64,000 nt of DNA, from the sequence record OR062947.1. One strand, 5' to 3'. This DNA comes from Escherichia phage 348Ecol098PP. The notes beneath the pieces were generated by a model. The model saw nothing but the letters and a program-made list of their open reading frames with translations. It was not told where the DNA came from and ran no database searches. Every line of letters starts with the position of its first letter. Position 1 is the stretch's first letter. This document shows, piece after piece, positions 3,376 through 61,227 of the stretch. Position numbers and translations under genes: made by a program.

Positions 3376-3825
3376 ATGGCCTACTCTGGTAAATGGGTCC
3401 CAAAAAATTTAAAAAAATACCGTGGAGACCATACCAAAATAACGTATCGTTCAAACTGGGAAAAATTCTTTTTCGAATGGTTGGATAAAAATCCAGAAAT
3501 TATTGCATGGGGTAGTGAAACAGCAGTAATTCCATATTTTTGTAATGCTGAAGGTAAGAAACGTCGATACTATATGGACATATGGATGAAAGATGCATCA
3601 GGTCAAGAGTTTTTTGTAGAAATAAAACCAAAGAAAGAAACTCAACCACCTATTAAACCGGTGAATCTTACAACTGCGGCTAAGAAACGTTATATGAATG
3701 AAATATATACCTGGTCTGTGAACTGTGACAAATGGAAAGCTGCCTCAGCTGTTGCTGAAAAGAGAAATATAAAATTTCGAGTTCTAACCGAAGATGGTCT
3801 TAGAAAACTCGGATACAAGGGGTAA
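3376..3825 (+). CDS. 4: head completion protein gp4
   Basis: [42 protein letters not shown]...; SD AAGGAGG upstream; track ORF trimmed to this ATG. Confidence 0.85.
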
Positions 3826-3827
3826 TT

Positions 3828-4649
3828 ATGAGCATATTCCAAATTATATCTGAAGGCGTACAAGCCCCTAAGATTGCTCAGTCTATGAATGAAAGAAAAT
3901 GGATTGAGATAGGATTAGAATACAAGAAAGCTAAAGAGAAAGGAATCACTGCAAAAGCATTTGCAGAATCAAAAGGAATAAAATACTCGTCGTTTACATC
4001 TGCAATGTCTAGATATGCATCATCTATTAAGACTGCACAGAAAATTGAAACGCTTGAATCTAAACCTAAAAATAAACTCAATAAGCAAGAACGTCAACTT
4101 CTGATGATAAACTCGTTTCGCAGTTCAATACGAGAAAAGATTAGAAATGAAGGCGCAGCAGTAAACAACAAATCATCTAAGTGGTTTGTTGAAACAATTA
4201 AGAAAAGTGTAAAAGGTCATAAAGTAGTCAAGCCTACGCCAGGCAAAATTTATACTTACGTGTATGATGCTAAACATAAAGATACTCTACCGTATTGGGA
4301 CAGATATCCTTTGATTATTTATTTAGGATTAGGTAAACATAATTTGATGTACGGGTTAAACTTGCACTATATCCCACCTAAAGCACGTCAACAGTTTCTT
4401 GAAGAATTGCTGAAGCAATATGCTAGCACAACTACTATTACTAATAACACAAAGTTGAAGATAGACTGGAGCAAGGTGAAAGGATTTCAAGGTGCTGACA
4501 AAATGATTAAAGCATACCTGCCAGGCCACATTAGAGGAACAATAACAGAAATCGCTCCTAAAGACTGGGCCAACATAATCATGTTACCTACTCAGCAGTT
4601 TATGTCAAAAGGAAAACGTTTCTCTGCGAATACTGTTTGGAAATCTTAA
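3828..4649 (+). CDS. 2: DNA end protector protein gp2
   Basis: 273 aa; size and synteny (4-2-3-1). Confidence 0.8.
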
Positions 4650-4751
4650 TTCTATTCTCTTCCGTTCTTCTGATATTCTGTTGAACCAGATTAATGGAAG
4701 AGACCTAAAACCATTATACTGCATTTTTATTAAAGCGTTTTTGAGGTGCTT

Positions 4752-5336
4752 ATGACTCGTCCAGCGAGACAGATTTTTAACCAAACAAATATAACAAACT
4801 TTGTTGTGGATATCCCAGATAGTACACGAACTTCAGGTTTTGTGCTCAATGCCCAAACGGCTCCATTGCCAGGTGTGAGAATTCCTGTTGTTGAAACTGT
4901 GACAGGCACAATGGGGCTAGGACGTGCAATGCGTGCAGGCACCACATTTGAATATGACCCTTTTATTGTACGATTTATAGTTGATGAAGACATGACGTCC
5001 TGGATGAACATGTATAAATGGATGCTCAGCACTAATAATTATATAACCGGCCATAATACGGCCCACTCTGATGGTCCTGAGTTTGTTACTTTGCACATTT
5101 TAAACAACAATAAGACCGAAGTAGTTTTGACGGCAAATTTCTATAAACCATGGATTTCCGATTTGAGTGAAATTGAATTTAGTTACACTGAAGACTCTGA
5201 CCCTGCCGTTACTTGCGTAGCAACTATTCATTACGCGTATATGACGATAGAAAAAGATGGCGAAGTCATTGTATCTCAACAACCACGTCAAGCGGTCGAA
5301 TCTAAATCCATTTCTAGACACCCTTCCTTGCGTTAA
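4752..5336 (+). CDS. 3: tail completion / sheath stabilizer gp3
   Basis: Synteny between 2 and 1; first ATG (MTRPARQ...). Confidence 0.75.
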   Translation: MTRPARQIFNQTNITNFVVDIPDSTRTSGFVLNAQTAPLPGVRIPVVETVTGTMGLGRAMRAGTTFEYDPFIVRFIVDEDMTSWMNMYKWMLSTNNYITGHNTAHSDGPEFVTLHILNNNKTEVVLTANFYKPWISDLSEIEFSYTEDSDPAVTCVATIHYAYMTIEKDGEVIVSQQPRQAVESKSISRHPSLR

Positions 5337-5389
5337 TCGCTTCTAGCTCCGTATGTTATAATCACTCATAAATTATATGAGGAAAACCT

Positions 5390-6124
5390 ATGGAGCTAAT
5401 CTTTTTAAGTGGCATCAAACGTAGTGGTAAAGACACTACTGCTGATTACATCAATTCAAACTTTAAATCCGTAAAATACCAATTGGCATATCCGATTAAA
5501 GACGCTCTAGCAATAGCCTGGGGACGTAGGCATGCTGAAAACCCTGATGTATTCACAGAGTTGAAATACGAATACTTTGAAGGCATTGGATACGACCGTG
5601 AAACACCATTAAATCTCAATAAGTTGGATGTTATTGAATTATTGGAAGAAGCGCTAATTTATTTGCAAAGTCAATATTTACCAATTAATAATGTTAAAGT
5701 ATTATCATCGTTAGAAGGTGGATATTCGTATCTAGATATTAAACCATATGAAGCCCTGCGTGAAGCTATAAATAATATCAACGACACATGGTCAATCCGC
5801 CGTCTTATGCAAGCCCTCGGTACGGATGTTGTCGTTAATTTATTTGACCGTATGTATTGGGTTAAACTTTTTGCATTAAACTATATGGATTATATTGGAA
5901 GTGATTTCGATTACTATGTCGTAACCGATACACGTCAAGTCCATGAAATGGAAACCGCTAGAGCGATGGGTGCTACAGTTATTCATGTGGTTCGCTCTGG
6001 TACGGAATCCACCGATAAACATATTACAGAAGCTGGGTTGCCTATTGAAGAAGGCGATTTAGTTATTACAAACGACGGCTCTTTAGAAGAGCTTTATTCT
6101 AAAATTGAAACAATCTTAAGGTAA
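5390..6124 (+). CDS. 1: deoxynucleoside monophosphate kinase gp1
   Basis: 244 aa, N-terminal P-loop-like GIKRSGKDT; synteny. Confidence 0.8.
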   Translation: MELIFLSGIKRSGKDTTADYINSNFKSVKYQLAYPIKDALAIAWGRRHAENPDVFTELKYEYFEGIGYDRETPLNLNKLDVIELLEEALIYLQSQYLPINNVKVLSSLEGGYSYLDIKPYEALREAINNINDTWSIRRLMQALGTDVVVNLFDRMYWVKLFALNYMDYIGSDFDYYVVTDTRQVHEMETARAMGATVIHVVRSGTESTDKHITEAGLPIEEGDLVITNDGSLEELYSKIETILR

Positions 6125-6128
6125 TAAA

Positions 6129-6814
<686 letters not shown>

Positions 6815-6825
6815 TTTTCACAAAA

Positions 6826-6860
6826 CAGTTTACATAAAGATGATGGTGTGTTACTATCAT
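6826..6860 (+). promoter_or_regulatory. early sigma70-type promoter (GTTTAC ... tactat)
   Basis: GTTTACA -35-like box, about 18 nt spacer, -10-like tactat, partial inverted repeat; precedes ORF 6892. Confidence 0.5.
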
Positions 6861-6891
6861 CCTATCAAATAAACAGCCTCAAGGAAATAAA

Positions 6892-7203
6892 ATGAAAACT
6901 TATCAAGAGTTTATCGCTGAAGCTACTAAAGCCGATAAAAATTTTATTATTAACACCACCGGTCCGTTAGATGATGAATACGCTAATGCTATTATTAAGT
7001 CAATTTCTAATCAAGGCGTTGAAGTAACAAATTTCGAATATAAGAAAAATGATACTTATATGATAATTAGTATCAAAAAAGGTTCAAAGGCTAAAATTAA
7101 ATCTGCATTTGGTGTTATGCGAGTCGACCAAATCGATAACCACGATTTTTCACAAACAGGGGCCAAACGCCAAAACACCATTTCTTCTAAAGGCATAAAA
7201 TAA
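6892..7203 (+). CDS. internal-protein-like protein with capsid targeting sequence
   Basis: N-terminus MKTYQEFIAE = T4 internal protein capsid targeting sequence (CTS). Confidence 0.75.
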   Translation: MKTYQEFIAEATKADKNFIINTTGPLDDEYANAIIKSISNQGVEVTNFEYKKNDTYMIISIKKGSKAKIKSAFGVMRVDQIDNHDFSQTGAKRQNTISSKGIK

Positions 7204-7242
7204 TTTACAACTTGATAGGACTACTATATCATAGTCCTATCA
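7204..7242 (+). promoter_or_regulatory. early promoter inside perfect inverted repeat (PeSL-like)
   Basis: ATTTACA then 9-bp inverted repeat ataggacta/tagtcctat flanking the -10 region. Confidence 0.55.
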
Positions 7243-7264
7243 AAATAACCAAATGGAACCTAAA

Positions 7265-7528
7265 ATGAAAACTTTCAACGAATTCATCTCAGAATCGTCT
7301 GGTGTGAAAATTAACAAAGCGGTCAATCAGGTTATTGCTGATATTCTTAATTTGTATAACATTGACTTAACTCCGCATATCACGCTTGGTAACAAACGAA
7401 ACTTTTTCATATTTGACACATCCGAACTTGATGAAAATCAGTTCAATAACATTCAACGTTTTGCGAATGATAAAGGTCTTCGACACGAGCCTGGTGGCTA
7501 TAAAAAATACGCAATATATTTGAAATAA
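7265..7528 (+). CDS. internal-protein-like protein with CTS
   Basis: Starts MKTFNEFISE (CTS pattern); SD upstream. Confidence 0.7.
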   Translation: MKTFNEFISESSGVKINKAVNQVIADILNLYNIDLTPHITLGNKRNFFIFDTSELDENQFNNIQRFANDKGLRHEPGGYKKYAIYLK

Positions 7529-7529
7529 A

Positions 7530-7572
7530 GGTATACAAGCCTATAGGGATATGTTATAGTAGTCCTATCAAA
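7530..7572 (+). promoter_or_regulatory. early promoter / PeSL-like cassette
   Basis: gtatacaa ... tgttatagtagtcctatc, same cassette family. Confidence 0.45.
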
Positions 7573-7597
7573 ACAAATGAGTAAATGGAGAAATAAA

Positions 7598-23972: not shown

Positions 23973-24554
23973 ATGGCTAGTTTAATTTTTACATATGCCG
24001 CTATGAACGCTGGTAAGTCTGCTTCATTACTTACTGCCGCACATAACTATAAAGAACGTGGCATGGGTGTATTAGTTCTTAAACCGGCTATTGATACTCG
24101 TGATTCAAAGGGTGAAATAGTCTCTCGTATTGGTATTCGTCAGGATGCCAATATAATTACAAAAGACATGGATATCTTTGAATTCTATAAATGGGCTGCA
24201 GCACAAAAGGATATTCACTGCGTATTTGTTGACGAAGCTCAGTTCTTAACTACTGAAAAGGTGTATCAACTTAGTCGTATTGTTGACGTATACAATGTGC
24301 CAGTAATGGCATATGGACTACGAACAGATTTTAAAGGTAATCTATTTGAAGGTTCTCAAGCATTAATGGCTATTGCCGATAAGCTTGTTGAACTTAAAGG
24401 TGTCTGTCATTGTGGTAAAAAGGCCACAATGGTAGCTAGAGTCACGGAAGATGGACTTCCAATTACAGATGGCAGTCAAATTGAAATTGGTGATACCGAT
24501 AGATATGTGTCATTATGCCGGAAGCATTGGAATGATTTGACAGGGTTGTTATAA
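23973..24554 (+). CDS. tk: thymidine kinase
   Basis: P-loop AAMNAGKS, TK zinc-ribbon CHCGKKAT...LCRKHW. Confidence 0.9.
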   Translation: MASLIFTYAAMNAGKSASLLTAAHNYKERGMGVLVLKPAIDTRDSKGEIVSRIGIRQDANIITKDMDIFEFYKWAAAQKDIHCVFVDEAQFLTTEKVYQLSRIVDVYNVPVMAYGLRTDFKGNLFEGSQALMAIADKLVELKGVCHCGKKATMVARVTEDGLPITDGSQIEIGDTDRYVSLCRKHWNDLTGLL

Positions 24555-24581
24555 ATACTAATATCTAACCAAGAGGTATAT

Positions 24582-24794
24582 ATGCAGCAATTAAACGAAA
24601 GACAACTTCGTAATCTTACTGTAACCCAATTGGATGAAATCCGAAGAGAATTAGGACATTCTATTTCTCATTTAAACGAGGATATCCGTCAAACTGGTTC
24701 TAAAGCTGATTATACACGCAAGCGCAAGCTGGAAAAATACCTCACAGATGTTAAGGCCGTCCAAAGGCGAAAAATAAATACTGGCCAAAATTAA
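24582..24794 (+). CDS. hypothetical protein
   Basis: 70-aa ORF with SD. Confidence 0.5.
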
Positions 24795-24806
24795 CAGGAG
24801 GCCTAT

Positions 24807-25109
24807 ATGGCCTTAAGAGCGATAGCTGTCATGGCGATGCTGGGGTTTTTTGCAGCAACAACTCCTATCGTTGGTACTGCATATATCGACCCATATTTTG
24901 ATAACTTTATGGAATCAGGGATTAAAAACGTATATACTTTGTTTGAAATTCAAAATGTCGAGAATTCTGAAAAATTCTATAAGTATATGGCAAAGCATTA
25001 CAAAAATAGCCCCTGTGATGATGCATTTGAATGTCATGAACAAGGCATAAAAACTGCCAGACAATTTGCCGAGTTCATGAAAATAAAATTAGAGCCTACA
25101 TCTATCTAA
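24807..25109 (+). CDS. secreted protein
   Basis: N-terminal signal peptide. Confidence 0.55.
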   Translation: MALRAIAVMAMLGFFAATTPIVGTAYIDPYFDNFMESGIKNVYTLFEIQNVENSEKFYKYMAKHYKNSPCDDAFECHEQGIKTARQFAEFMKIKLEPTSI

Positions 25110-25115
25110 TTTACT

Positions 25116-25143
25116 AGCCCCTTCCGAAAGGTTGGGGCTTTTT
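25116..25143 (+). terminator. rho-independent terminator (copy of 9855 hairpin)
   Basis: agccccttccgaaaggttggggc + T-run, identical to 9855-9883. Confidence 0.7.
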
Positions 25144-25154
25144 GGCATCTATCA

Positions 25155-25206
25155 GTTTACTTCTCCTCAGGTTGTGTTATAGTAAACCTTACTTACTAGA
25201 GGAGAA
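25155..25206 (+). promoter_or_regulatory. early promoter / PeSL with SD in 3-prime arm
   Basis: GTTTAC; inverted repeat ttctcctc/gaggagaa. Confidence 0.5.
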
Positions 25207-25210
25207 CGTT

Positions 25211-25390
25211 ATGTCACGTAAAGAAAAAATTTCTAAGTTAATGTTTTTGATTGAAGAGTACGCTAATGCGGTATCTGATTGGGAAAATGCTCATGGTTGC
25301 GAAGATGGAGACATCGACATTAACAGAGCTATGAAAAAGATGGCTGATACGCACACCGAATTGCAAATGTATGTTAACGAGATTATGTGA
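25211..25390 (+). CDS. small hypothetical protein
   Basis: Internal ATG with SD gaggag. Confidence 0.5.
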   Translation: MSRKEKISKLMFLIEEYANAVSDWENAHGCEDGDIDINRAMKKMADTHTELQMYVNEIM

Positions 25391-25397
25391 GGACATT

Positions 25398-25607
25398 ATG
25401 CTTTACGATTATACTGGAAAATCTGAAGACGGTGTACTTGAACTTTTACCTGAAAGTGCTGAAGATGATGATATGACGACGGTGATGTTTTGTAAAAATG
25501 GCCCTGGGGATAAGGGATGGATTTATCTTCGTCAAGAAAATGACTTAATTGTTTTGGACCCTAAACAAGTTGAAGAACTTTATCAACATTTAAAACACAA
25601 TCGGTAG
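25398..25607 (+). CDS. hypothetical acidic protein
   Basis: ORF with SD. Confidence 0.5.
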   Translation: MLYDYTGKSEDGVLELLPESAEDDDMTTVMFCKNGPGDKGWIYLRQENDLIVLDPKQVEELYQHLKHNR

Positions 25608-44550: not shown

Positions 44551-44776
44551 TTACGAAATCCATCGTCATGAATTTAGTATTGGTGACGGTTATATTGGTG
44601 TCGTTGAATGGGCTGAGAATTACGAGGAATCAACTCCTCGTTTCTTTGGAACAATGTATGTTACCTGTGAGTACGCGCCAGGTGTTGTTATATATGCAGA
44701 ACTAGATGAATATTTTGCTGATAGAGATGACATGTTAAAATATGTAGAGGACTTCATTCGAAGAGAATACATATGA
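44537..44776 (+). CDS. hypothetical protein (46.1-like position)
   Basis: ORF. Confidence 0.5.
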   Translation: MTKTDYEIHRHEFSIGDGYIGVVEWAENYEESTPRFFGTMYVTCEYAPGVVIYAELDEYFADRDDMLKYVEDFIRREYI

Positions 44777-46461
44777 AATCATTTAAATTAAATCGTGTTC
44801 GTTATCAAAACATCATGTCGGTAGGTGGGAATCCTATTGACATCCAATTAGATAAAGTCCAAAAGACATTAATCACTGGTAAAAATGGTGGTGGTAAATC
44901 TACGATGTTAGAAGCCATTACTTTCGGACTTTTCGGTAAACCATTTCGTGATGTTAAGAAAGGGCAAATCATTAATAGCACGAACAAGAAAGAGCTCTTA
45001 GTTGAGCTTTGGATGGAATTCGATGGTAAAAAATACTTCATTAAACGTGGCCAAAAGCCCAATATTTTCGAAATCTCCGTTGACGGTGTTCGTCTCGATG
45101 AATCTGCCAGCAGTCGTGACTTCCAAGAAGAATTTGAACGTAGCATCGGAATGTCATACGCGTCTTTTAAACAAATCGTTGTGCTTGGGACGGCAGGGTA
45201 TACCCCTTTCATGGCTCTTAGCACCCCTGCTCGTAGAAAACTTGTCGAAGACCTTTTAGAAGTCGGCACACTCGCTGAAATGGATAAAATCAATAAGTCT
45301 CAAGTTCGAGAACTTAATTCCCAGGGACAAGTTCTCGATGCCAAGAAAGATGGTGTTATCCAACAAATTAAGATTTATAACGAGAATATCGAACGTCAAA
45401 AGAAATTATCTGGTGATAATGTAGCGCGTCTACAGAATATGTATGATGACCTAGCCAAAGAAGCTCGTTCATTAAAAGCAGAAATCGAAGAAGCTAATGA
45501 GCGACTACTTAATATCGTTCTTGATGAAGACCCTACTGAGGCATTCAACAAGATCGGACAAGAAGCATTCTTGATTAAATCTAAAATCGACTCATATAAC
45601 AAAGTTATTAAGATGTATCATGACGGTGGCACATGTCCTACTTGTGCGTCACAGTTGCACCAGGGTGACCCTATTGTCTCTAAGATTACCGATAAGCTTC
45701 ATGAATGTAATCACTCATTCGAGCAACTTACATGTCACAGAGATAATCTGAGTGTCCTAGTGGACGAATATAGAGCTAATGTTAAGACTAAACAGGACCT
45801 TGCATCTGATATTCGTACCAAGAAACAAGCAATGATTGCCACTATTGATAAAGCTAAGAAAGTTAAAGCTGCAATAGAACAAGCCTCGGCGGAATTTATC
45901 GACCATGCCGATGAGATAGCTTTGCTTCAAAAAGAACTTGATAAAATCATTAAAACAAAATCAGATATCGTTCTTGAAAAATACCATCGTGGTATTATCA
46001 CAGATATGTTAAAAGATTCTGGTATTAAAGGTGCTATCATTAAAAAATACGTGCCTCTGTTCAACAAGCAGATTAACCATTATCTTAAAATCATGGAAGC
46101 TGATTACGTGTTTTCTATTGACGAAGAATTCAATGAATCTATAAAATCACGTGGCCGCGAAGAGTTCAGTTATGCTTCATTTAGTCAAGGTGAAAAAGCA
46201 CGTATCGATATCGCGTTATTGTTTACATGGCGAGATATTGCTGAAAAGGTCTCTGGTGTTAGAATCAATACATTAATTATGGACGAAGTCATGGATTCCG
46301 CGACTGATTCTGAAGGTATTAAAGCTATTTCAACAATTCTTAACTCTCTAACCGATGCAAACGTGTTTATAATTAGTCACAGAGACCATGACCCACAAGC
46401 TTATGGACAGCATTTGCAAATGAGCAAAGTTGGACGATTTACTGTAATGAAAGCCTCTTAA
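44773..46461 (+). CDS. 46: recombination endonuclease subunit gp46 (Rad50-like ATPase)
   Basis: 562 aa; Walker A GKNGGGKST, zinc hook CPTC, signature and Walker B near C-terminus. Confidence 0.9.
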   Translation: MKSFKLNRVRYQNIMSVGGNPIDIQLDKVQKTLITGKNGGGKSTMLEAITFGLFGKPFRDVKKGQIINSTNKKELLVELWMEFDGKKYFIKRGQKPNIFEISVDGVRLDESASSRDFQEEFERSIGMSYASFKQIVVLGTAGYTPFMALSTPARRKLVEDLLEVGTLAEMDKINKSQVRELNSQGQVLDAKKDGVIQQIKIYNENIERQKKLSGDNVARLQNMYDDLAKEARSLKAEIEEANERLLNIVLDEDPTEAFNKIGQEAFLIKSKIDSYNKVIKMYHDGGTCPTCASQLHQGDPIVSKITDKLHECNHSFEQLTCHRDNLSVLVDEYRANVKTKQDLASDIRTKKQAMIATIDKAKKVKAAIEQASAEFIDHADEIALLQKELDKIIKTKSDIVLEKYHRGIITDMLKDSGIKGAIIKKYVPLFNKQINHYLKIMEADYVFSIDEEFNESIKSRGREEFSYASFSQGEKARIDIALLFTWRDIAEKVSGVRINTLIMDEVMDSATDSEGIKAISTILNSLTDANVFIISHRDHDPQAYGQHLQMSKVGRFTVMKAS

Positions 46462-47174
46462 TGAGGCTTATGTTTACAGTTATCAAAATGCCAACGACGC
46501 ATATTAGCAGGGATCCCTATTTTATCGCAATGAGGACATTTAATTTTCTTGTCCTCTTTTTTCTTTCTGTTAGGATTTGATTTACAGAATTTTATATGCG
46601 GCTTTAACGCCGATAACTTAGTAGTTAAGCCACAAAACGGACAAGAATCTTCTTTCCAAATTTTCGTGGCCATGGTTTTAATTATTTTATCTTTTGTTTC
46701 TTGATCAAGTTTTACTATTTTAGGCGTAGGGCCTTGTTTACAGTTATCAAAATGCCAACGTCTCATGTTTCCTTCAGTGCCGGTTAAACCGCAGTGTGGA
46801 CATGTAATCTTTGGTTTATTTTTTGCCGACTCAGACATTTTCTTACGAGTTTCAGCAGTGAATTCTTTGTTCTTTTGAACTTCTTGATTCTTACGTCGAA
46901 GCCATCCAAATAATTTGTTTTTGCTTCTATCTGCTTTAGGAGATGAGATAGTCATCATACGAGCAGCATATATTAAAGAGGCATTATCTGGATGGATTTT
47001 TACCAACAGTTGATGTGCCAAATAATGTTCTTCCGGTGTTAAGTCTACTAAGTTTAAAGCATCATCACTTCCACCTAAACATTGTGGTATAATGTGATGA
47101 CGTTCTGTATAACCATCTAAACTTCTTGATTTAGCATTGGTGATAAGCTTTTCGTATATTGAGTTATAATTCAT
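46458..47174 (-). CDS. HNH homing endonuclease with three C-terminal Cys-His repeats
   Basis: HNH motif ERHHIIPQCLGGSDDALNLVDLTPEEHYLAH; repeated CPHCG...MRRWHFDNCK; only minus-strand gene in an all-plus region. Confidence 0.75.
   Translation of the reverse strand: MNYNSIYEKLITNAKSRSLDGYTERHHIIPQCLGGSDDALNLVDLTPEEHYLAHQLLVKIHPDNASLIYAARMMTISSPKADRSKNKLFGWLRRKNQEVQKNKEFTAETRKKMSESAKNKPKITCPHCGLTGTEGNMRRWHFDNCKQGPTPKIVKLDQETKDKIIKTMATKIWKEDSCPFCGLTTKLSALKPHIKFCKSNPNRKKKEDKKIKCPHCDKIGIPANMRRWHFDNCKHKPH
46458..47174 (-). mobile_element. free-standing HNH homing endonuclease gene between 46 and 45.2
   Basis: Opposite orientation to neighbours; internal 30-nt direct repeats (46471 and 46737). Confidence 0.6.
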
Positions 47175-47872: not shown

Positions 47873-47914
47873 TAAATTTGTTATAAACTTTGAATTGTCT
47901 TGAAAGGAAATAAA

Positions 47915-48601
47915 ATGAAACTGTCTAAAGATACTATCGCTATTCTGAAAAACTTTGCCTCTATTAACTCTGGCATTCTGCTGAGTCAAGGTAAATTTAT
48001 TATGACTCGTGCAGTTAATGGCACCACTTATGCGGAAGCAAATATCTCTGATGAAATTGATTTTGACGTAGCACTTTATGATTTGAATAGCTTCTTAAGC
48101 ATTTTGAGTCTAGTGTCTGATGATGCCGAAATTTCAATGCACACCGATGGCAATATTAAAATTGCAGATACACGTTCCACAGTTTATTGGCCTGCCGCTG
48201 ACAAGAGCACCATTGTTTTTCCTAATAAGCCAATTCAATTCCCAGTGGCTTCTGTGATTACTGAAATTAAAGCCGAAGACCTTCAACAATTGCTTCGAGT
48301 TTCACGTGGTCTTCAGATTGATACAATTGCTATTACAAATAAAGATGGTAAAATTGTTATCAATGGCTATAATAAAGTTGAAGATTCTGGACTAACTCGT
48401 CCTAAGTATTCTTTGACTCTTACCGATTATGATGGTTCTAACAATTTTAACTTCGTAATCAATATGGCTAATATGAAAATCCAGCCAGGTAACTATAAAG
48501 TAATGTTGTGGGGAGCTGGTGATAAAGTTGCAGCCAAGTTTGAAAGCCCTCAAGTAAGTTATGTTATTGCGATGGAAGCCGATTCTACTCACGACTTCTA
48601 A
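47915..48601 (+). CDS. 45: sliding clamp gp45
   Basis: MKLSKDTIAILKNFASINSGILL... Confidence 0.9.
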   Translation: MKLSKDTIAILKNFASINSGILLSQGKFIMTRAVNGTTYAEANISDEIDFDVALYDLNSFLSILSLVSDDAEISMHTDGNIKIADTRSTVYWPAADKSTIVFPNKPIQFPVASVITEIKAEDLQQLLRVSRGLQIDTIAITNKDGKIVINGYNKVEDSGLTRPKYSLTLTDYDGSNNFNFVINMANMKIQPGNYKVMLWGAGDKVAAKFESPQVSYVIAMEADSTHDF

Positions 48602-53408: not shown

Positions 53409-54044
53409 ATGAAAACTACTCCTATTACTATCGCTATTGACGCAATCATAAAACAATCTTCTTCTTTGGCCGCTATGGCCAAAGTAATTAGTCAAAACCC
53501 TGCTCGTTATAATGCTATTCTAGAAACTCTTCGACGTCCGGGACTTAGTAATTATGAAAGTCGTGTAATTATTACAGGTGTTGGTAAGAATGCTAATATT
53601 GCAACTAAAGCTTCTGAGACATTTGCTTCACTCGGTATCCCGAGTATGTACTTGAACACTGGGCATTATTCTCACGGCGATGCAGGATTCATTGCGCCTA
53701 ATGATGTGTTGATTCATATTAGTCGTTCTGGTAAAACTGAAGAAATGATAGGCGTGGCTAAGCATCTTAAAATGATTCGACCGAACGTCAAACAGATTCT
53801 GTTGCATTGTAACCCAGACATTCCACAAGAAAATGAAGCCCTTTTTGATTACTCTTTCTGTACAGGCATCGCAGTAGAGGTTGATGAGAATTCTCTGGCT
53901 CCGACTATGTCCACTACATTGTTGTTAGCGCTTATCGATACGTTTGCTATCAACCTTTCGTCTGAACGTGGATTTACCTCTAATGATTTCCTTAAGTTCC
54001 ATCCAGGCGGTGCACTAGGTGCCATGTTACGAGGCGAGCAATGA
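53409..54044 (+). CDS. SIS-domain sugar-phosphate isomerase (KdsD/GutQ-like arabinose-5-phosphate isomerase core)
   Basis: ITGVGKNANIATKASETFASLGIPS...HGDAG...ISRSGKTEE...LAPTMSTT matches SIS/KdsD pattern. Confidence 0.8.
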   Translation: MKTTPITIAIDAIIKQSSSLAAMAKVISQNPARYNAILETLRRPGLSNYESRVIITGVGKNANIATKASETFASLGIPSMYLNTGHYSHGDAGFIAPNDVLIHISRSGKTEEMIGVAKHLKMIRPNVKQILLHCNPDIPQENEALFDYSFCTGIAVEVDENSLAPTMSTTLLLALIDTFAINLSSERGFTSNDFLKFHPGGALGAMLRGEQ

Positions 54045-54225: not shown

Positions 54226-55911
54226 ATGAAAAAAGCTGTTATTCTTGGTGCTGGACTAGCAACTCGTTTGTATCCAATAACGCATCATATTCCTAAGGTG
54301 CTTGTTAACTATAAACAAGACACTATTCTGAGCAATTTGTATACAATTTATTCTGACCTTGGCGCAGATGAAATTATTGTAGTAGTTCATTCAAAATTTG
54401 CTGGAACTGTTCGAGCTTATTGTGAGCAAGAAGGGTTCAATGTGACTATTCGTACAGTTGATGAAGCGTATGGTTCTGCTTATGCTCTTGCTAAATTGCA
54501 CAAAGATTTAGACGGCCATAATGTAATTGTTAACTGGTGTGATATTATTCCTGATTTTGGTTCATGGTCTTGGAATGTTAACGCAATCTATGTTAAGGGT
54601 GACGAATGTCGATATAATTTCGACGGTGAAAATATCACTAACGTAGGTTCAACAGGTGGTAATGTTGTAGGAATTTACCAGTTCAAAGACTGGGAATTCT
54701 ATATGGGTTCTACCGATGAGGAAATTCATGAATACTGCAAAGGACGTGATTTCGTAGAATTCCTTTACGGCAGTGCATTCAATAAATCAGAGCTTATGAA
54801 TCTAATTGATTTAGGTGATATGCCTAAACTTGAAAAGGCTCATGAAGTTCGTGAACTTAATCGTAGTTTTAATGCAGTTGAAATTGGTGAAGAAACTGTA
54901 ACTAAATTCGCATTAACCGAACAAGGCCGAGCTCTTCAGAAAGATGAGATTTCATGGTATCTTAAAGTGAAATCAGATTCAGTTCCTCAGTTAGTTTCTG
55001 TTAATGAAAATAACTTTGAAATGGAACGCATTAAAGGTAAGCCGGCATTTGAATATATTAAATCCAAATCGAGTCTCGCTCGTCCACAAATTGTTGATGC
55101 AATTTTAGATGCACTGAAATTCAGCACAGACACTTATTTTGTAAGTCCTGAAACTGTTCGTCGTGATTTCACTAAAGAATTCTATACGAAAGTTATTGAT
55201 CGTTGTGAAAGTATTCAACCATTGATTGATTCATTTGGTAAAATAACACATGTGAACTACACTAAGATTGGGCGTCTGAAGCCAATGTTGAAACAAGCTT
55301 TAGAACACCTTATTCGTTATCATAACCGTTCTCAGGGACAGTACTCTGTTATTCATGGTGACCCGAACTTCAGTAATACTATGATTACTGATAATGGCGA
55401 AGTCAAGTTTATCGACCCTCGTGGATATTTTGGTGAAACCAAGATTTACGGGCCAAAATTGTATGATGAAGCTAAAGTGCTTTACGCTGTTTCAGGATAT
55501 GATGAATTCAACGCTAATCCGACCTGGGGGCAGTTTACTATTGATGAAACAACTTGTAATGTGACTATTAACATCAATCCATTAGTTTACAAATATGGAA
55601 AGATGAGTTCGTTTAACGAGTATCATCATTTGGCGGTGGCAATTATCTGGATTGCATTAGGTGGTTATTTCAAGAATAATCCACTTAAAGCGGTAGCCGC
55701 ATATTATAAAGGTATGGAACTTCTGACTAAGCAATTACGTAACATGGGCCGTGTACTTCAGGACGGCACCATTAGTTATGACGTAGCAGAACCTGTAACG
55801 GCTACTCTGATTACAAAAAATCCTGGTAAATGGGTACTAACTGATAAAGAAACTGGTGTTTCCTATCGTCCAATCGGTGGCGATATCACTCATCAATGGG
55901 AACGAATCTAA
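54226..55911 (+). CDS. bifunctional sugar-1-phosphate nucleotidyltransferase / APH-like sugar kinase
   Basis: N-terminus AVILGAGLATRL (NDP-sugar pyrophosphorylase); C-terminal HGDPNFSN and FIDPRG (APH/choline-kinase fold). Confidence 0.8.
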   Translation: MKKAVILGAGLATRLYPITHHIPKVLVNYKQDTILSNLYTIYSDLGADEIIVVVHSKFAGTVRAYCEQEGFNVTIRTVDEAYGSAYALAKLHKDLDGHNVIVNWCDIIPDFGSWSWNVNAIYVKGDECRYNFDGENITNVGSTGGNVVGIYQFKDWEFYMGSTDEEIHEYCKGRDFVEFLYGSAFNKSELMNLIDLGDMPKLEKAHEVRELNRSFNAVEIGEETVTKFALTEQGRALQKDEISWYLKVKSDSVPQLVSVNENNFEMERIKGKPAFEYIKSKSSLARPQIVDAILDALKFSTDTYFVSPETVRRDFTKEFYTKVIDRCESIQPLIDSFGKITHVNYTKIGRLKPMLKQALEHLIRYHNRSQGQYSVIHGDPNFSNTMITDNGEVKFIDPRGYFGETKIYGPKLYDEAKVLYAVSGYDEFNANPTWGQFTIDETTCNVTININPLVYKYGKMSSFNEYHHLAVAIIWIALGGYFKNNPLKAVAAYYKGMELLTKQLRNMGRVLQDGTISYDVAEPVTATLITKNPGKWVLTDKETGVSYRPIGGDITHQWERI

Positions 55912-56297
55912 TGCACCGTGTAGAAAACATGCTTAATCTTTGTTTTGATGTCGATGATTGTATAACAGAGTGGAATAACAATCGTGATTACGTGAACTTC
56001 AAACCAGACGTCGAAATGGTGTCTGCCATTAATGCCCTATATGATGCAGGGCATACCATAACGCTTTACACTGCTCGCGGTATGAAGTCAGTAGGTCCTG
56101 GTCGTATAGCAATTGACATTCTCCCAAGTCTGATTCAGAACTTGGCAAACATTGGCTTGAAGTACCATAATTTGCTAACACATAAACCAGTATATGATTG
56201 GATTATCGACGACAAAGCTATGCGTCCTGACGAATTCAAAGCTCTTATGAATAAAGGCGAATTCGAAACATTTAAATCATATAAACCGAATCTATAA
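55911..56297 (+). CDS. HAD-superfamily phosphatase (KdsC-like)
   Basis: Motif I FDVDD, later T, K-P and DD motifs. Confidence 0.7.
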   Translation: MHRVENMLNLCFDVDDCITEWNNNRDYVNFKPDVEMVSAINALYDAGHTITLYTARGMKSVGPGRIAIDILPSLIQNLANIGLKYHNLLTHKPVYDWIIDDKAMRPDEFKALMNKGEFETFKSYKPNL

Positions 56298-56351: not shown

Positions 56352-57512
56352 ATGAATACCTTTAAAATCGGAACGAATTTTGATTTAGCTCTTCTTGATA
56401 AAATCGTAGAGCTCAATAAAACTTATCCTAATAGCTTGATAAACGAAGTATACGGCTCTACAAGAGAAATGGCTTTTGTAGCAGCCAGACCTGATTTTAG
56501 GCTTCCTGACGTTGACAAAAAGATGTTAGAAGATTACGTTAAACGTTGTAACGAATTAGGTATTTGCTTTAACTATACACTCAACACGATAAATCCTGGT
56601 TCAAAAAGAGAACTAGTTGAGTGGAAGAAGAAAGCTATTCAGGATTATGTTCAGTATCTTTGGTCAATAGGCGTATGGCGTATTACTATCGCTAACCCTG
56701 TTGTTATGGAAATTGTTCGTGAAGTCAATAAAGACATTGAGATTGAAGTTTCAACAATTCTACATGTCGATGCTGTAACTCAAATCAAATACTTGCATGA
56801 CCAATATAATATCAAAAAGGTCTGCTGTGGAATTCATAAGAACCGTTCAGTTTCTTTCCTGAAGCGTGCAGCAGAGTTTTGCAATAAGAACAATATAATA
56901 TTTGAAGTTCTCGTAAATGAATTCTGCTCTAATGCTGGTAAAGGGTATACAACACATTGTAGTTATCGTGACTCTTGCTATATTTTCCATAGCACCGATG
57001 TTACAGTAGATGATGCCAAATCCTTAAATGGATATCCTATGCAGCACTGTATTAAAGCTCGTGATACAGACCCATTTAACTGGTTGAGAACTCGTTTTGT
57101 TCGTCCTCAAGATTTGAAACTTTATAATGATATTGGTATCACTCAATTCAAAGTTTCAGGACGTACAGGTAGCACCGACTACATTTTGAAAGTTCTTGAA
57201 GCTTATGCTTCTGAAAAGTTTGAAGGTAATTTGTTGGAATTGTGGAAGCCTTTAGAGACTATTTTCACTCTTGAAAATGAGACCGAGTTTTCACATACGG
57301 TAAATATTGAAACCTCTTTGTTAGATGGCTTTTTAGAAAAAAGGTGGTTCAAACATCCAGATTTCGATTGTGCTAATGAAATCTGCGGGACGACGTGTAC
57401 ATATTGTGAAAGATATTATAAACGTCAGTTATCTAAAAATGGGTTAGCAGAAAACTCTATATCTATTATTGATATAACTAACTCTGATGACGCTTTGAGG
57501 TACCCGGAATGA
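56352..57512 (+). CDS. Cys-rich enzyme of unknown function (possible metal / Fe-S binding)
   Basis: 386 aa; Cys clusters C-x10-C-x5-C and C-x5-C-x3-C-x2-C near C-terminus. Confidence 0.6.
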   Translation: MNTFKIGTNFDLALLDKIVELNKTYPNSLINEVYGSTREMAFVAARPDFRLPDVDKKMLEDYVKRCNELGICFNYTLNTINPGSKRELVEWKKKAIQDYVQYLWSIGVWRITIANPVVMEIVREVNKDIEIEVSTILHVDAVTQIKYLHDQYNIKKVCCGIHKNRSVSFLKRAAEFCNKNNIIFEVLVNEFCSNAGKGYTTHCSYRDSCYIFHSTDVTVDDAKSLNGYPMQHCIKARDTDPFNWLRTRFVRPQDLKLYNDIGITQFKVSGRTGSTDYILKVLEAYASEKFEGNLLELWKPLETIFTLENETEFSHTVNIETSLLDGFLEKRWFKHPDFDCANEICGTTCTYCERYYKRQLSKNGLAENSISIIDITNSDDALRYPE

Positions 57513-57745: not shown

Positions 57746-57772
57746 ATAAGCTTTATGAATTGAGTATATAAT
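57746..57772 (+). promoter_or_regulatory. candidate MotA-dependent middle promoter for gene 42
   Basis: MotA-box-like AAGCTTTA, 11-nt spacer, TATAAT. Confidence 0.45.
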
Positions 57773-57790: not shown

Positions 57791-58507
57791 ATGGGAAAAC
57801 ATAACACAATGAAATATATTAAAGCCGCAGATTTTCAATCCGCATTTAAAGCTGTCAATCGTGAAATTTTAGAAAATCCACAGTTCGTTACTGACTCTCG
57901 TATTGGACGTTGTAATGAAATTGGGTCTATGACAGTAGTTGTTGATACCCCTTCATCATTCAAAATGACCGACCCACGTATTAATCGCATCTCTTATGAA
58001 TATGCTGAAGATTTCTGGAAATTTATGATTTCTGGTGGTACTGATGCAGAAGAAGCATTTAAGGCATATCCTAACGTTGCTAAATTTATTTCTAAACCTA
58101 AATCAGATGCTTTGCCTGCAAACTTCAACACTTTCTACGGTCCACGAATTGCGGCCCAGTTACCAGCTCTTCTCAAAGAACTTAAAGAGAAACCTAATTC
58201 ACGAAGAGTTGTGTTTCAAATTCTTGAAAGTTCAGATCAGGCTTTGCTTGATTCGGATGAAACACTTGAATATCCATGTACTGACTCAGTGACTTATTAT
58301 ATTCGTGATGGTAAGCTTTATACCCACTGTCATATGCGTTCTCAGAACTGTGCTGTTGTTATGCAGTTGGATTTTTATCTCCAAGGAAAATTACTTCATT
58401 ATATCGCTAACGAATGTGGTGTAGAAGTTGGTGATTATACTCATACCATGGTAAGTGCCCATGTGTTTGAACGTGATTTTGATTATGTTAAAGGATTCCT
58501 TGACTAA
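57791..58507 (+). CDS. 42: dCMP hydroxymethylase gp42-like (thymidylate synthase fold)
   Basis: TS-family motifs RRVVFQIL, PCTDSVTYYIRDGKLYTHCHMRSQN, AHVFE; position between 43 and uvsX. Confidence 0.75.
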   Translation: MGKHNTMKYIKAADFQSAFKAVNREILENPQFVTDSRIGRCNEIGSMTVVVDTPSSFKMTDPRINRISYEYAEDFWKFMISGGTDAEEAFKAYPNVAKFISKPKSDALPANFNTFYGPRIAAQLPALLKELKEKPNSRRVVFQILESSDQALLDSDETLEYPCTDSVTYYIRDGKLYTHCHMRSQNCAVVMQLDFYLQGKLLHYIANECGVEVGDYTHTMVSAHVFERDFDYVKGFLD

Positions 58508-59406
58508 TGGCTATTTTCCGCGTACCTATCTTGAGTATGCGGTCTTATGAAACTGGACAGTATGCTATCCTTAAGGATGGCAACTTCCAACTTCATTTGC
58601 ACCGTGCTAATCCGGGTGATGTGATTACATATCCACGTAATGCATCTGATATTAAAGAATGTGAACGTCTTTTCCCAGAATTTAAGTTTGTTCCATTATG
58701 GTATAAAGATAACGCATATAACACTCGTAAATATTTCTGGTCTGAAAATGAATTTGTGGTTGATTCATTAATTGATTATTATGATTGTGATTTTCTAATC
58801 ACAGATATCACTGGATATGACGGTACTTTTGACGTAGAATTCAATTTCAATATCACTGCAGACCCTAATAAACCACGTTTTTATATTGACGAATTCTTAA
58901 AAACCGATATGTTGTCGGTTAATCGTTCACTTCAAACTACTGTGTTGAATAAACGTCAAAAGGAAGTGCTGGTTAACGCTGGTGCCGATGGTAATAAGAT
59001 TATCGTAACCCAGAAAGTTATACGTCCTTCCATCATGCAGCGTCTTGTAGGTGATTTGGCTCCTATTCATCTAGATGGTATTTTTCATCCATTTCGAATT
59101 AGTGATCCGTGCTATCGTTTTGAACAAGTGGTTGAATGCGCGATTCAATTAGGTCAACCGCTTTATATAACCGATCCAAATAATAGCTTCGACAGAAATA
59201 AGTATCCTGAAGAAGCGTTGATTCGAATTTTTAAACCAACTAAAACTGAGTACTATCAAATTCTTAAAGGACGACCGAAGATTCAATATTTCGAAAATCC
59301 TGAAGAAGTATTTCATCCAGGTCTTGGTGAGTTCATCTACTTTAACGCTTTAATTTCTTCGCCGTATAATATACCTAAATATGAAGATGTCGTAATCGAG
59401 GAATAA
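58507..59406 (+). CDS. hypothetical protein in the beta-glucosyltransferase position
   Basis: 299 aa, no resemblance to recalled T4 beta-gt; ATGA coupling to gene 42. Confidence 0.6.
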   Translation: MAIFRVPILSMRSYETGQYAILKDGNFQLHLHRANPGDVITYPRNASDIKECERLFPEFKFVPLWYKDNAYNTRKYFWSENEFVVDSLIDYYDCDFLITDITGYDGTFDVEFNFNITADPNKPRFYIDEFLKTDMLSVNRSLQTTVLNKRQKEVLVNAGADGNKIIVTQKVIRPSIMQRLVGDLAPIHLDGIFHPFRISDPCYRFEQVVECAIQLGQPLYITDPNNSFDRNKYPEEALIRIFKPTKTEYYQILKGRPKIQYFENPEEVFHPGLGEFIYFNALISSPYNIPKYEDVVIEE

Positions 59407-59407
59407 A

Positions 59408-59956
59408 ATGGCTAAAATTATTTTAGTAGATGGCCCAGATAATGCTGGTAAAACAACTTTCATTAATGACATAATGGAAATTAGTGAAAGATATGTAAAG
59501 ATTGATTTCCCTAAACGAACAGTTGATGGACGTTTCGATGTTAAGTCTCGAAATGAAGTTGGCTGTTTCGAAACGATGTTGAATTATTTAGACCCTACTA
59601 AGATTTATCTGTTAGACCGTGGATATATTAGTAACTGGGTTTATGGACGTATTCGACAAGACGCGGACTCGGTTCTTGACGTTTATGAACAGGATTATGT
59701 TCGTCTTTGCCAAAACCATGATGTGTTCACAATTATTTTAACACGTAACGAAATGACTGAAAGTTTTGAAGACGACCTTATTACTTTGTCTTCATTCGGT
59801 TTTAATACAGTCATTTCACATTTTGAAGAGTTTGCAATTCATAACAAAATCCAAACGTATCAATTACTTAATCATGATGGTGCTAACAAAGTTATAGGAT
59901 TTAATGCAAGCGAACGTAATGATTTGATTACAGAAATCATCAAATGGGCTCGTTAA
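59408..59956 (+). CDS. thymidylate-kinase-like P-loop nucleotide kinase
   Basis: P-loop VDGPDNAGKTT and DRGYISNWVYG resembling the TMK DRY motif. Confidence 0.65.
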   Translation: MAKIILVDGPDNAGKTTFINDIMEISERYVKIDFPKRTVDGRFDVKSRNEVGCFETMLNYLDPTKIYLLDRGYISNWVYGRIRQDADSVLDVYEQDYVRLCQNHDVFTIILTRNEMTESFEDDLITLSSFGFNTVISHFEEFAIHNKIQTYQLLNHDGANKVIGFNASERNDLITEIIKWAR

Positions 59957-60054: not shown

Positions 60055-61227
60055 ATGTCTGATTTAAAATCTCGTCTGATTAAAGCTTCTACTTCTAAAA
60101 TGACTGCAGACTTGACTAAGTCTAAGCTGTTTAATAATCGTGATGAAGTCCCTACTCGTATTCCGATGTTGAATATTGCACTAGGTGGTGCTCTGAATGC
60201 AGGATTGCAATCAGGCTTGACTATTTTTGCTGCACCTTCTAAACATTTTAAAACATTGTTTGGACTGACCATGGTTGCAGCATATATGAAGAAATATAAA
60301 GATGCAATTTGTTTGTTCTATGATTCAGAATTTGGTGCTTCAGAATCTTATTTTCGTTCAATGGGTGTTGATTTAGACCGTGTAGTTCATACTCCGATTC
60401 AATCTGTCGAACAACTTAAAGTTGATATGACTAATCAGCTTGACGCGATTGAACGTGGTGATAAAGTTATTATCTTTATCGATTCAATCGGTAATACTGC
60501 ATCTAAGAAAGAAACCGAAGATGCGTTGAACGAGAAAGTTGTAGGTGATATGTCTCGTGCTAAGGCACTTAAATCTCTGTTCCGCATTGTGACTCCTTAT
60601 CTGACTATTAAAGATATTCCATGTGTTGCAATCAACCATACAGCAATGGAAATCGGCGGACTATATCCTAAAGAGATTATGGGCGGCGGTACAGGTATTC
60701 TTTACTCTGCTAACACTGTATTCTTTATCTCTAAACGTCAGGTTAAAGAAGGTACAGAATTGACCGGTTATGACTTCACGTTGAAAGCAGAAAAATCTCG
60801 CACAGTTAAAGAGAAATCTACTTTCCCGATCACGGTTAATTTTGATGGCGGTATTGACCCATTCAGTGGCTTGTTAGAAATGGCAACTGAAATTGGTTTT
60901 GTAGTTAAGCCTAAAGCCGGGTGGTATGCTCGTGAATTCCTTGACGAAGAAACAGGCGAAATGATTCGTGAAGAAAAATCATGGCGTGCTAAAGCTACTG
61001 ATTGTGTAGAATTTTGGGGGCCGTTGTTTAAACATAAGCCTTTCCGAGATGCAATTGAAACTAAATATAAACTAGGTGCTATCTCTTCTATTAAAGAAGT
61101 TGATGACGCTGTTAACGACCTTATTAATTGCAAAGCAACAACTAAAGTTCCGGTTAAAACTTCTGATGCTCCGTCTGCAGCAGATATAGAAAACGACCTT
61201 GACGAAATGGAAGATTTCGATGAATAA
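60055..61227 (+). CDS. uvsX: RecA-like recombinase UvsX
   Basis: MSDLKSRLIKASTSKMTADLTKSKLFNNRDEV...; RecA fold motifs. Confidence 0.95.
   Translation: MSDLKSRLIKASTSKMTADLTKSKLFNNRDEVPTRIPMLNIALGGALNAGLQSGLTIFAAPSKHFKTLFGLTMVAAYMKKYKDAICLFYDSEFGASESYFRSMGVDLDRVVHTPIQSVEQLKVDMTNQLDAIERGDKVIIFIDSIGNTASKKETEDALNEKVVGDMSRAKALKSLFRIVTPYLTIKDIPCVAINHTAMEIGGLYPKEIMGGGTGILYSANTVFFISKRQVKEGTELTGYDFTLKAEKSRTVKEKSTFPITVNFDGGIDPFSGLLEMATEIGFVVKPKAGWYAREFLDEETGEMIREEKSWRAKATDCVEFWGPLFKHKPFRDAIETKYKLGAISSIKEVDDAVNDLINCKATTKVPVKTSDAPSAADIENDLDEMEDFDE

Follow-up and report, generated by a model that had tools for sequence, protein, structure and literature searches.

Which steps of DNA modification are carried out by the two genes that lie between the homologue of T4 gene 42 and uvsX in Escherichia phage 348Ecol098PP? 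The window that we analysed is a 64,000-nucleotide stretch of this phage (sequence record OR062947.1), a Mosigvirus with ~98–99% identity to RB69. The first-pass annotation of this DNA had described a 299-residue protein, coupled to gene 42 and without similarity to the T4 β-glucosyltransferase, followed by a thymidylate-kinase-like P-loop protein, and the layout is as it was described. A thymidylate-synthase homologue at the ‘gene 42’ position (57791–58507), the 299-residue ORF (58507–59406) and a 182-residue ORF (59408–59956) follow one another on the plus strand, with uvsX downstream at 60055–61227; the last three are taken from the ORF list, and the 299-residue and 182-residue ORFs both have ATG starts. 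The TAA stop codon of the synthase homologue (58505–58507) overlaps the ATG of the 299-residue ORF in a TAATG, an arrangement of translational coupling. The 299-residue ORF ends with TAA at 59404–59406 and the ATG of the 182-residue ORF follows one base on, preceded by GAGGA.

Homologues of the 299-residue protein fall into 137 clusters, with matches in 348 phage records, and those of the 182-residue protein into 27 clusters, so that both are genuine genes and not chance ORFs. Positions 58507–59956 are ~98–99% identical in DNA sequence to positions 24047–25497 of RB69, with a single one-nucleotide indel: in the RB69 reference one extra T splits the 299-residue ORF in two, whereas here the ORF is intact. 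Both RB69 half-ORFs were among the BFVD matches, with 97–99% identity to the 299-residue protein. The two genes are thus the same as RB69 gp46:47 (ORF047c+046c) and gp45, and roles for both are already in the literature. Lee et al. (Nucleic Acids Res 2026, PMC13326640) name RB69 gp46:47 ‘arabinosyltransferase 1’ and gp45 ‘nucleotide kinase’, with DLP3 gp79 and gp78 and RL38J1 gp215 and gp214 as counterparts; the synteny, the fold matches (PDB entry 6kih and thymidylate kinases, TMPKs) and the proposed roles are the same as those found here. In that work activity was demonstrated for neither gp46:47 nor gp45, arabinosyl transfer to 5-hydroxycytosine being a proposal, and the accessible literature reports no enzymatic activity of either protein. 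The inference made from gene position was correct, but the literature came first.

The identity of the upstream gene decides which base is modified. The ‘gene 42’ homologue matches the Pfam family Thymidylat_synt (E = 2.4e-15) and has 99.6% identity to the HY126 enzyme, the structure of which is solved (PDB entries 9iqc/9ir2). Enzymes of the HY126 type are flavin- and O2-dependent dCMP 5-hydroxylases, a function shown for the RB69 orthologue (PMC13326640). On sequence grounds the homologue is thus a 5hodCMP synthase, making 5-hydroxy-dCMP and not hydroxymethyl-dCMP; in a BLAST alignment with E. coli ThyA the D169 position is one residue off, and the assignment leans on the identity to 9iqc and on the published D169N signature. 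With a 5-hydroxylase in this position, the acceptor of the sugar would be 5-hydroxycytosine instead of 5-hydroxymethylcytosine (hmC), and the DNA would carry arabinosyl-5-hydroxycytosine. The earlier proposal that the 299-residue protein is a candidate DNA arabinosyltransferase is strengthened by its fold, by its orthology to gp46:47 and by the same proposal in PMC13326640, but hmC as the acceptor has to be replaced by 5-hydroxycytosine.

Genes for an arabinose donor lie upstream, all on the plus strand. The first is an arabinose-5-phosphate isomerase at 53409–54044, the orthologue of RB69 gp55 and the first step towards the donor (NCBIfam KpsF/GutQ, E = 2e-32, and KdsD, E = 7e-31; Pfam SIS; PMC13326640). 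It is followed by a 561-residue bifunctional sugar kinase and nucleotidyltransferase at 54226–55911 (RB69 gp52:53, AfhE-like), which makes UDP-arabinofuranose (UDP-Araf; Pfam NTP_transferase with weak APH-type kinase matches; PMC13326640), and by a HAD-type phosphatase at 55896–56297 (RB69 gp51, AfhF-like; NCBIfam capsule biosynthesis phosphatase, E = 4e-13; PMC13326640). The C-terminal domain of the 561-residue protein is the sugar kinase of the pathway (PMC13326640), which makes the earlier suggestion that the 182-residue kinase handles a sugar intermediate unlikely.

The fold prediction for the 299-residue protein, which had been suggested as a check, gave a confident model with a GT-B, GT4-like fold, and not a non-transferase fold; it consists of two Rossmann-like α/β domains with a cleft between them. 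All of the top structural neighbours are retaining GT4/GT5 enzymes, in agreement with the α linkage of the first arabinose that was reported from NMR (PMC13326640). The sequence identity to retaining GT4 enzymes is only 7–12% (sucrose-phosphate synthase, PDB entry 6kih; BshA, 6n1x; PimA, 2gej; WaaG, 8b5s). An assignment came from the fold search and not from sequence: Pfam has no family for the protein, none of 36 family members matched any glycosyltransferase family at E ≤ 1 (including Glycos_transf_1 and Glyco_trans_4), and searches of NCBIfam and of PDB profiles gave no match. By eye, the alignment of the family (A1) shows no evident EX7E motif, which is canonical in retaining GT4 enzymes; instead, it has an invariant His270-Pro271-Gly272 followed by Glu or Asp at position 275. 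Taken together, the model and the orthology suggest that the protein is a GT-B-fold candidate for the first, nucleobase-proximal arabinosyltransferase acting on 5-hydroxycytosine.

The T4 β- and α-glucosyltransferases (GT63 and GT72) are among the nearest known systems. The absence of similarity to the β-glucosyltransferase was borne out by tblastn across the window, in which an approximate T4 sequence as the query gave a best E value of 1.7. The T4 enzyme also differs in its acceptor, hmC in DNA, which is not made by this phage. As a rough indicator of DNA binding we compared pI and net charge, and the 299-residue family is acidic, with a median pI of 5.2. Homologues of one of the two DLP3-type glycosyltransferases shown to act on DNA are acidic as well (pI 5.3–5.5), and the pI is thus uninformative as to whether the acceptor is DNA or a nucleotide.

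The 182-residue protein carries the motifs that had marked it as thymidylate-kinase-like, VDGPDNAGKTT and DRGYISNW, and across its family GPDNAGKTT, FPKRT and DRGYISNWVY are invariant. The fold search returned a nucleoside monophosphate (NMP) kinase-type fold with TMPK as the nearest. Alignment with approximate TMPK sequences agrees with this: hhalign against human TMPK covers the stretch from the P-loop to FPKR with 93% probability, and in MAFFT the DR..S motif aligns with that of the TMPKs, although the MAFFT alignment is unreliable for the helix after FPxR. Relative to TMPKs, the segment that joins the FPxR motif to the following helix is ~25 residues shorter, and residues 37–44 form a low-confidence loop in the model; the shortened stretch possibly opens the base pocket.

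As previously noted, the phage also has a gp1-type dNMP kinase, its other nucleotide kinase, on the plus strand at 5390–6124 (Pfam DNMK, E = 1.4e-96; 63% identity to an approximate T4 gp1 sequence). This is the true gp1 orthologue. The 182-residue protein would likewise be a phage NMP kinase serving the synthesis of DNA with modified cytosine, but it belongs to an unrelated family and does not match the DNMK model (PF21448). In vitro, the RB69 gp1 homologue turns 5hodCMP into 5hodCDP, and it is enough for incorporation in E. coli (PMC13326640). A dedicated 5hodCMP kinase is thus not obviously needed, yet the kinase gene is strictly conserved. A role in handling a modified nucleotide is plausible for the 182-residue protein, and the gp1 activity weakens the version in which it is a 5hodCMP kinase.

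Conservation was assessed in 59 IMG/VR loci that hold a relative of the 299-residue protein. The synthase gene directly adjoins the transferase gene in 48 of the 59, and synthase, transferase and kinase are contiguous in 27; the kinase lies elsewhere in the same cluster in a further 11, and contig ends cut five. Wherever the transferase is at least 33% identical and the locus is uncut, the kinase is present. The triad extends beyond T4-like phages, to metagenomic contigs with no arabinose genes within 6 kb (L028–L041), to a 355 kb jumbo contig (L061) and to a Rhizobium-phage-like genome (L058). The three genes are a portable core, and some of the phages that carry it probably use other sugars.

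The reading that we favour, and regard as fairly probable as a whole, is that the 5-hydroxylase, the GT-B arabinosyltransferase and the TMPK-like kinase end the arabinosyl-5-hydroxycytosine cluster of RB69-like phages. Both folds, the orthology to RB69 gp45 and gp46:47, the coupling arrangement and the synteny are observed here, and beside them we infer the donor, the acceptor, the stereochemistry and the substrate of the kinase as follows. The synthase homologue would produce 5-hydroxy-dCMP, which, once phosphorylated, would replace C in the DNA, while the isomerase, the AfhE-like protein and the HAD phosphatase would supply UDP-Araf. With this donor the 299-residue retaining enzyme would attach D-arabinofuranose to cytosine at its 5-hydroxyl, leaving an α-linked, base-proximal sugar; following the T4 paradigm, the cytosine that is modified is most likely in DNA. 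A second arabinose would be added by another glycosyltransferase encoded elsewhere in the genome, of the RB69 gp3 type. The 182-residue kinase would act on a 5-substituted dCMP, most simply converting 5hodCMP to 5hodCDP, as the module's own kinase in parallel to the gp1 dNMP kinase.

The first sugar may instead be added before replication. The 299-residue enzyme would then act on free 5hodCMP, the TMPK-like kinase would handle arabinosyl-5hodCMP, the polymerase would use the glycosylated dCTP analogue and later sugars would be added on DNA. The order synthase–transferase–kinase would match the order of such a pathway, with close coupling of the three genes. Even phages that have a gp1-type kinase strictly keep this kinase together with the transferase, and with gp1 able to handle 5hodCMP the second kinase needs another job. 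The missing residues and the low-confidence loop, possibly an opened base pocket, also speak for this reading. The DLP3 glycosyltransferases gave a negative result on 5hoC-DNA in vitro, and the authors cannot tell whether the first arabinosylation takes place on the mononucleotide or on DNA (PMC13326640). Those negative results, however, come from DLP3 proteins and are given as ‘data not shown’, and the third arabinose of DLP3 is added on DNA (PMC13326640). If true, addition before replication would explain the conserved second kinase beside the transferase despite gp1, the gene order and the failure of the glycosyltransferases on 5hoC-DNA. Against it, every phage DNA glycosylation characterised to our knowledge is post-replicative, following the T4 paradigm, and we consider arabinosylation of the free nucleotide unlikely. 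Placing the first sugar on DNA would confirm that paradigm; placing it on the nucleotide would make this the first pre-replicative glycosylation of a phage DNA precursor.

The kinase may also have a plainer role, raising the nucleotide supply as a usual or reserve kinase for dTMP, or for dNMPs broadly, with no specific link to the modification. Databases label the 182-residue protein a thymidylate kinase, in keeping with its TMPK-nearest fold and its P-loop, FPxR and DRxxxS motifs, and a profile search against the PDB gave weak TMPK matches; a direct sequence search of the PDB returned P-loop noise only (RecA, thioredoxin). The protein nevertheless misses all of the curated cut-offs for thymidylate kinases (Pfam PF02223, TIGR00041), to which it has 8–19% identity (for example PDB entries 5x7j and, from vaccinia, 2v54). 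It scores 16.6 bits with TIGR00041 against a cut-off of 83, and does not match Pfam Thymidylate_kin at E ≤ 0.1; 12 of 19 relatives match the latter weakly (best E = 2e-4), all below the 27-bit cut-off. Unlike thymidylate kinases, it is also genomically tied to a dCMP 5-hydroxylase, and its position beside the hydroxylase and transferase pair is kept across very different phage lineages. T4 gp1 covers dTMP, and this phage already has gp1. A plain supply kinase is, in our judgement, quite improbable.

A last alternative comes from the Shewanella phage Thanatos-1, the genome of which encodes a homologue 47.5% identical to the 299-residue protein, presumably TH1_063. According to a report on purified TH1_063, the protein makes UDP-xylose, with UTP and xylose-1-phosphate as substrates, and does not transfer sugar in assays with unmodified C, dCMP and dCTP as acceptors (PMC12838424). 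The 5-hydroxyl is missing from these acceptors, which makes the failure to transfer sugar uninformative, and it is very improbable that the 299-residue protein is a sugar-1-phosphate uridylyltransferase making the UDP-pentose donor, as was claimed for the Thanatos homologue, given a GT-B and not a nucleotidyltransferase fold, a canonical NTP-transferase domain already present in the 561-residue protein and a triad that occurs without sugar-activation genes nearby.

DNA containing arabinosyl-5-hydroxycytosine shields these phages from restriction enzymes, some CRISPR–Cas types and DNA glycosylases, a protection that is relevant to phage therapy and phage engineering. The two steps that have been characterised least in this pathway are those of the transferase, which would place the first sugar on the base, and of the kinase, for which there is no obvious need.

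The cluster also contains a gene for a U32-family protein at 56352–57512 on the plus strand (RB69 gp50; Pfam Peptidase_U32, E = 6e-11, with a weak UbiU match), which is found in some related loci only. We considered it as a mark of phages of facultative anaerobes, but the correlation is imperfect: the loci of Acinetobacter and Pseudomonas phages lack the gene, and so do those of the E. coli Dhakaviruses (JS98 group). A scan of the region for σ70 promoters and terminators gave no excess over chance. A motif resembling a T4 middle promoter (MotA box and −10; GCTTTA-N11-TATAAT) lies at 57750–57772 on the plus strand, upstream of the synthase–transferase–kinase unit, where it may act as a promoter. 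A second, similar motif at 59347–59370 on the same strand, which lies inside the transferase gene at its 3′ end, 38 nucleotides ahead of the kinase ATG, may do likewise. Across the window there are eight occurrences of the pattern of MotA box and −10, where 0.36 would be expected.

The ORFs of the 299-aa protein (58507-59406) and the 182-aa protein (59408-59956) lie on the same (+) strand, 3' of a gene of the thymidylate synthase family, the 'gene 42' homologue (57791-58507, +; Pfam Thymidylat_synt), and 5' of uvsX (60055-61227). Reading the junctions showed that the synthase homologue ends in GAC TAA and that its stop codon is shared with the ATG of the 299-aa ORF as TAATG, which bears out the translational coupling proposed in the first-pass annotation. 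The stop codon of the 299-aa ORF (TAA, 59404-59406) is followed one base further on by the ATG of the kinase, which has GAGGA ahead of it, and both VDGPDNAGKTT and DRGYISNW are found in the 182-aa protein. The 299-aa protein had been described as dissimilar to T4 beta-gt; a T4 beta-gt query gave no match when searched against the whole window. All details of the observation made in the first-pass annotation hold.

The 1450-bp stretch is matched at 95-99% identity by 153 records of Mosigvirus phages of Escherichia and Shigella, and its alignment to RB69 (NC_004928, 24047-25497) gives about 98-99%. The RB69 reference has one extra T (alignment column 545; the 59050-59052 region of the window; near 24950 in NC_004928), because of which the RB69 ORF is split into RB69ORF047c and RB69ORF046c; in the window and in the remaining Mosigvirus records listed, unlike this reference, the match is single and full-length. 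An independent Foldseek search of BFVD recovered both RB69 half-proteins, at 97% and 99% identity. The DNA alignment and the BFVD matches thus identify the 299-aa protein as RB69 gp46:47 and the 182-aa one as gp45. Several public records label the 299-aa ORF 'RNA polymerase binding protein', which is probably a propagated annotation error. The 299-aa family is found only in phages (137 protein clusters; 348 phage records with a match), with hosts that include Escherichia, Acinetobacter, Klebsiella, Serratia, Yersinia, Proteus and Shewanella. Its alignment has many invariant residues, among them an N-terminal S10-M-R-S, K23-D-G-N, F193-x-P-F-R-x-x-D, T222-x-P-N, K246 and H270-P-G. Searches of the Pfam, NCBIfam and PDB sequence models with the family gave no match, and the protein is assigned to PHROG 3891, a PHROG of unknown function.

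The 'gene 42' homologue shares 99.6% identity with the 238-aa 'thymidylate synthase' of PDB entries 9iqc and 9ir2; entry 9iqz of the same series is labelled 'phage HY126 glycosyltransferase'. Its RB69 orthologue, gp48, converts dCMP to 5-hydroxy-dCMP (5hodCMP) using O2 and flavin, and RB69 DNA carries beta-D-Araf-(1-3)-alpha-D-Araf ether-linked to C5 of 5-hydroxycytosine (5hoC; Lee et al., PMC13326640), which replaced the earlier view of this DNA as containing arabinosyl-hmC (PMC6024577). Since gp48 makes 5hodCMP and the sugars of RB69 DNA sit on 5hoC, the acceptor hydroxyl would be that of 5hoC; the hmC acceptor assumed in the first-pass annotation is wrong and out of date.

Genes for an arabinose-5-P isomerase (53409-54044), a 561-aa bifunctional kinase/nucleotidyltransferase (54226-55911) and a HAD phosphatase (55896-56297) lie 5' of the synthase homologue and correspond to the steps described for UDP-arabinofuranose synthesis (phage HY126 AfhE and AfhF; PMC13326640). 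We searched the ORFs of 59 IMG/VR loci encoding a relative of the 299-aa protein for all of the cluster genes. Synthase, transferase and kinase are contiguous in 27 of these loci; in a further 11 the synthase and transferase are contiguous and the kinase is a few genes upstream within the same cluster, and five are cut by contig ends. The kinase is present in every uncut locus with a transferase at least 33% identical. On a group of metagenomic contigs (L028-L041) the three genes have no arabinose genes within 6 kb; they are also found on a 355-kb jumbo contig (L061) and in a 156-kb Rhizobium-phage-like genome (L058). From this recurrence across unlike loci, hydroxylase, transferase and kinase form a portable core to which different sugar-supply genes are bolted on. 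Ahead of the three genes, the Rhizobium-phage-like block (3452-7593) has a 5'-deoxynucleotidase like YfbR, a small 150-aa ORF with no Pfam match and, two genes 5' of the synthase homologue, a P-loop protein with a weak likeness to gp1 (pairwise E 0.006), so both kinase types share one nucleotide-modification block there.

In L033 (4790-5293) the gene immediately 5' of the hydroxylase encodes a flavodoxin-fold protein resembling NAD(P)H oxidoreductases; in L061 (1978-2523) a gene of this kind shares a cluster with the hydroxylase and lies about 6 kb upstream. Such phages may supply a flavin reductase of their own, as would suit a flavin-dependent hydroxylase. The window also encodes a U32-family protein (56352-57512, +; RB69 gp50), placed after the sugar genes and before the gene of the dCMP 5-hydroxylase. 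Published work ties the U32 proteins RlhA, TrhP and UbiU/V to hydroxylations that depend on prephenate and not on O2, among them the one giving 5-hydroxycytidine in rRNA (PMC5727448, PMC6599085, PMC10990095). Three DnaE-type phage contigs (L047, L050 and L054) have the order dUTPase_2-like protein, GT, TMPK-like kinase, 299-aa relative and U32 protein, with no thymidylate synthase homologue found within 6 kb. An alternative route to 5hoC, perhaps an anaerobic one, might run through the U32 protein; in the pathway paper RB69 gp50 is entered only as a 'sugar or heterocycle reductase' (PMC13326640).

As the first-pass annotation held, the phage already has a gp1-type dNMP kinase (5390-6124, +; Pfam DNMK 1.4e-96), which is 63% identical to T4 gp1 and unrelated to the 182-aa kinase. 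The RB69 homologue, gp159, phosphorylates 5hodCMP to 5hodCDP in vitro, and gp159 and gp48 suffice for 5hoC incorporation in E. coli (Lee et al., PMC13326640); the TMPK-like kinase has no obvious necessary role because of this activity. The best-supported scheme as a whole, which we consider reasonably probable, is hydroxylation, phosphorylation, incorporation and then arabinosylation, with the module having its own kinase. The hydroxylase would supply 5hodCMP, the kinases and host NDK would convert it to 5hodCTP and the polymerase would place this in DNA. The 299-aa protein, as a retaining GT-B enzyme, would use UDP-Araf as donor to place Araf on the 5-hydroxyl, most likely in DNA, a gp3-type GT would add the second sugar, and the TMPK-like protein would be the module's own kinase for a 5-substituted dCMP. 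Of this scheme, the analysis itself establishes the folds, the orthology, the coupling and the synteny, and the substrates are inferred. The main rival has the transferase acting on 5hodCMP and the kinase serving a glycosylated dNMP, which would explain the puzzling conservation of a second kinase. Lee et al. cannot tell a first arabinosylation on the mononucleotide from one after replication, and in their hands individual DLP3 GTs did not arabinosylate 5hoC-DNA (data not shown; PMC13326640); we regard the mononucleotide route as unlikely. Slightly less likely again is that the 182-aa protein is a plain dTMP kinase. It is TMPK-like but scores far under the curated dTMP-kinase thresholds, and it is missing about 25 residues found in TMPKs after the FPxR motif. 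A homologue 47.5% identical to the 299-aa protein is encoded in the Thanatos-1 genome, and from its presumed position we take it to be TH1_063. TH1_063 is reported to form UDP-xylose out of UTP and xylose-1-P, and the transfer assays in that work used acceptors without a 5-hydroxyl (PMC12838424); that the 299-aa protein is itself a uridylyltransferase is very improbable.

Naming the 299-aa protein by position as a candidate DNA arabinosyltransferase was a good inference, and the same role is proposed in the 2025-2026 literature, where the genes, folds and proposed roles already appear. The accessible literature gives no activity for the 299-aa or the 182-aa protein; He et al. (2026) and Mahler et al. 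(2025), outside our survey, may contain such biochemistry.

A generic scan of the region for sigma-70 promoters and terminators gave nothing above chance. The pattern GCTTNA-N10-13-TATAAT, like a MotA box plus -10, has eight copies in the window versus 0.36 expected by chance; one lies 5' of the synthase gene (57750-57772, +) and another (59347-59370, +) in the 3'-terminal part of the transferase gene, with 38 nt separating it from the start codon of the kinase. The motif resembles a T4 MotA-dependent middle promoter, and by this likeness may have a regulatory role. Elsewhere in the window, a 238-aa ORF (46458-47174, -) lies antisense between gp46-like (44773-46461) and gp45-like (47900-48601) genes; it has an HNH-like H-x-I-P...H motif and two copies of a zinc-ribbon-like segment, CPHCG...RRWHFDNCK, and resembles a homing-endonuclease insertion.
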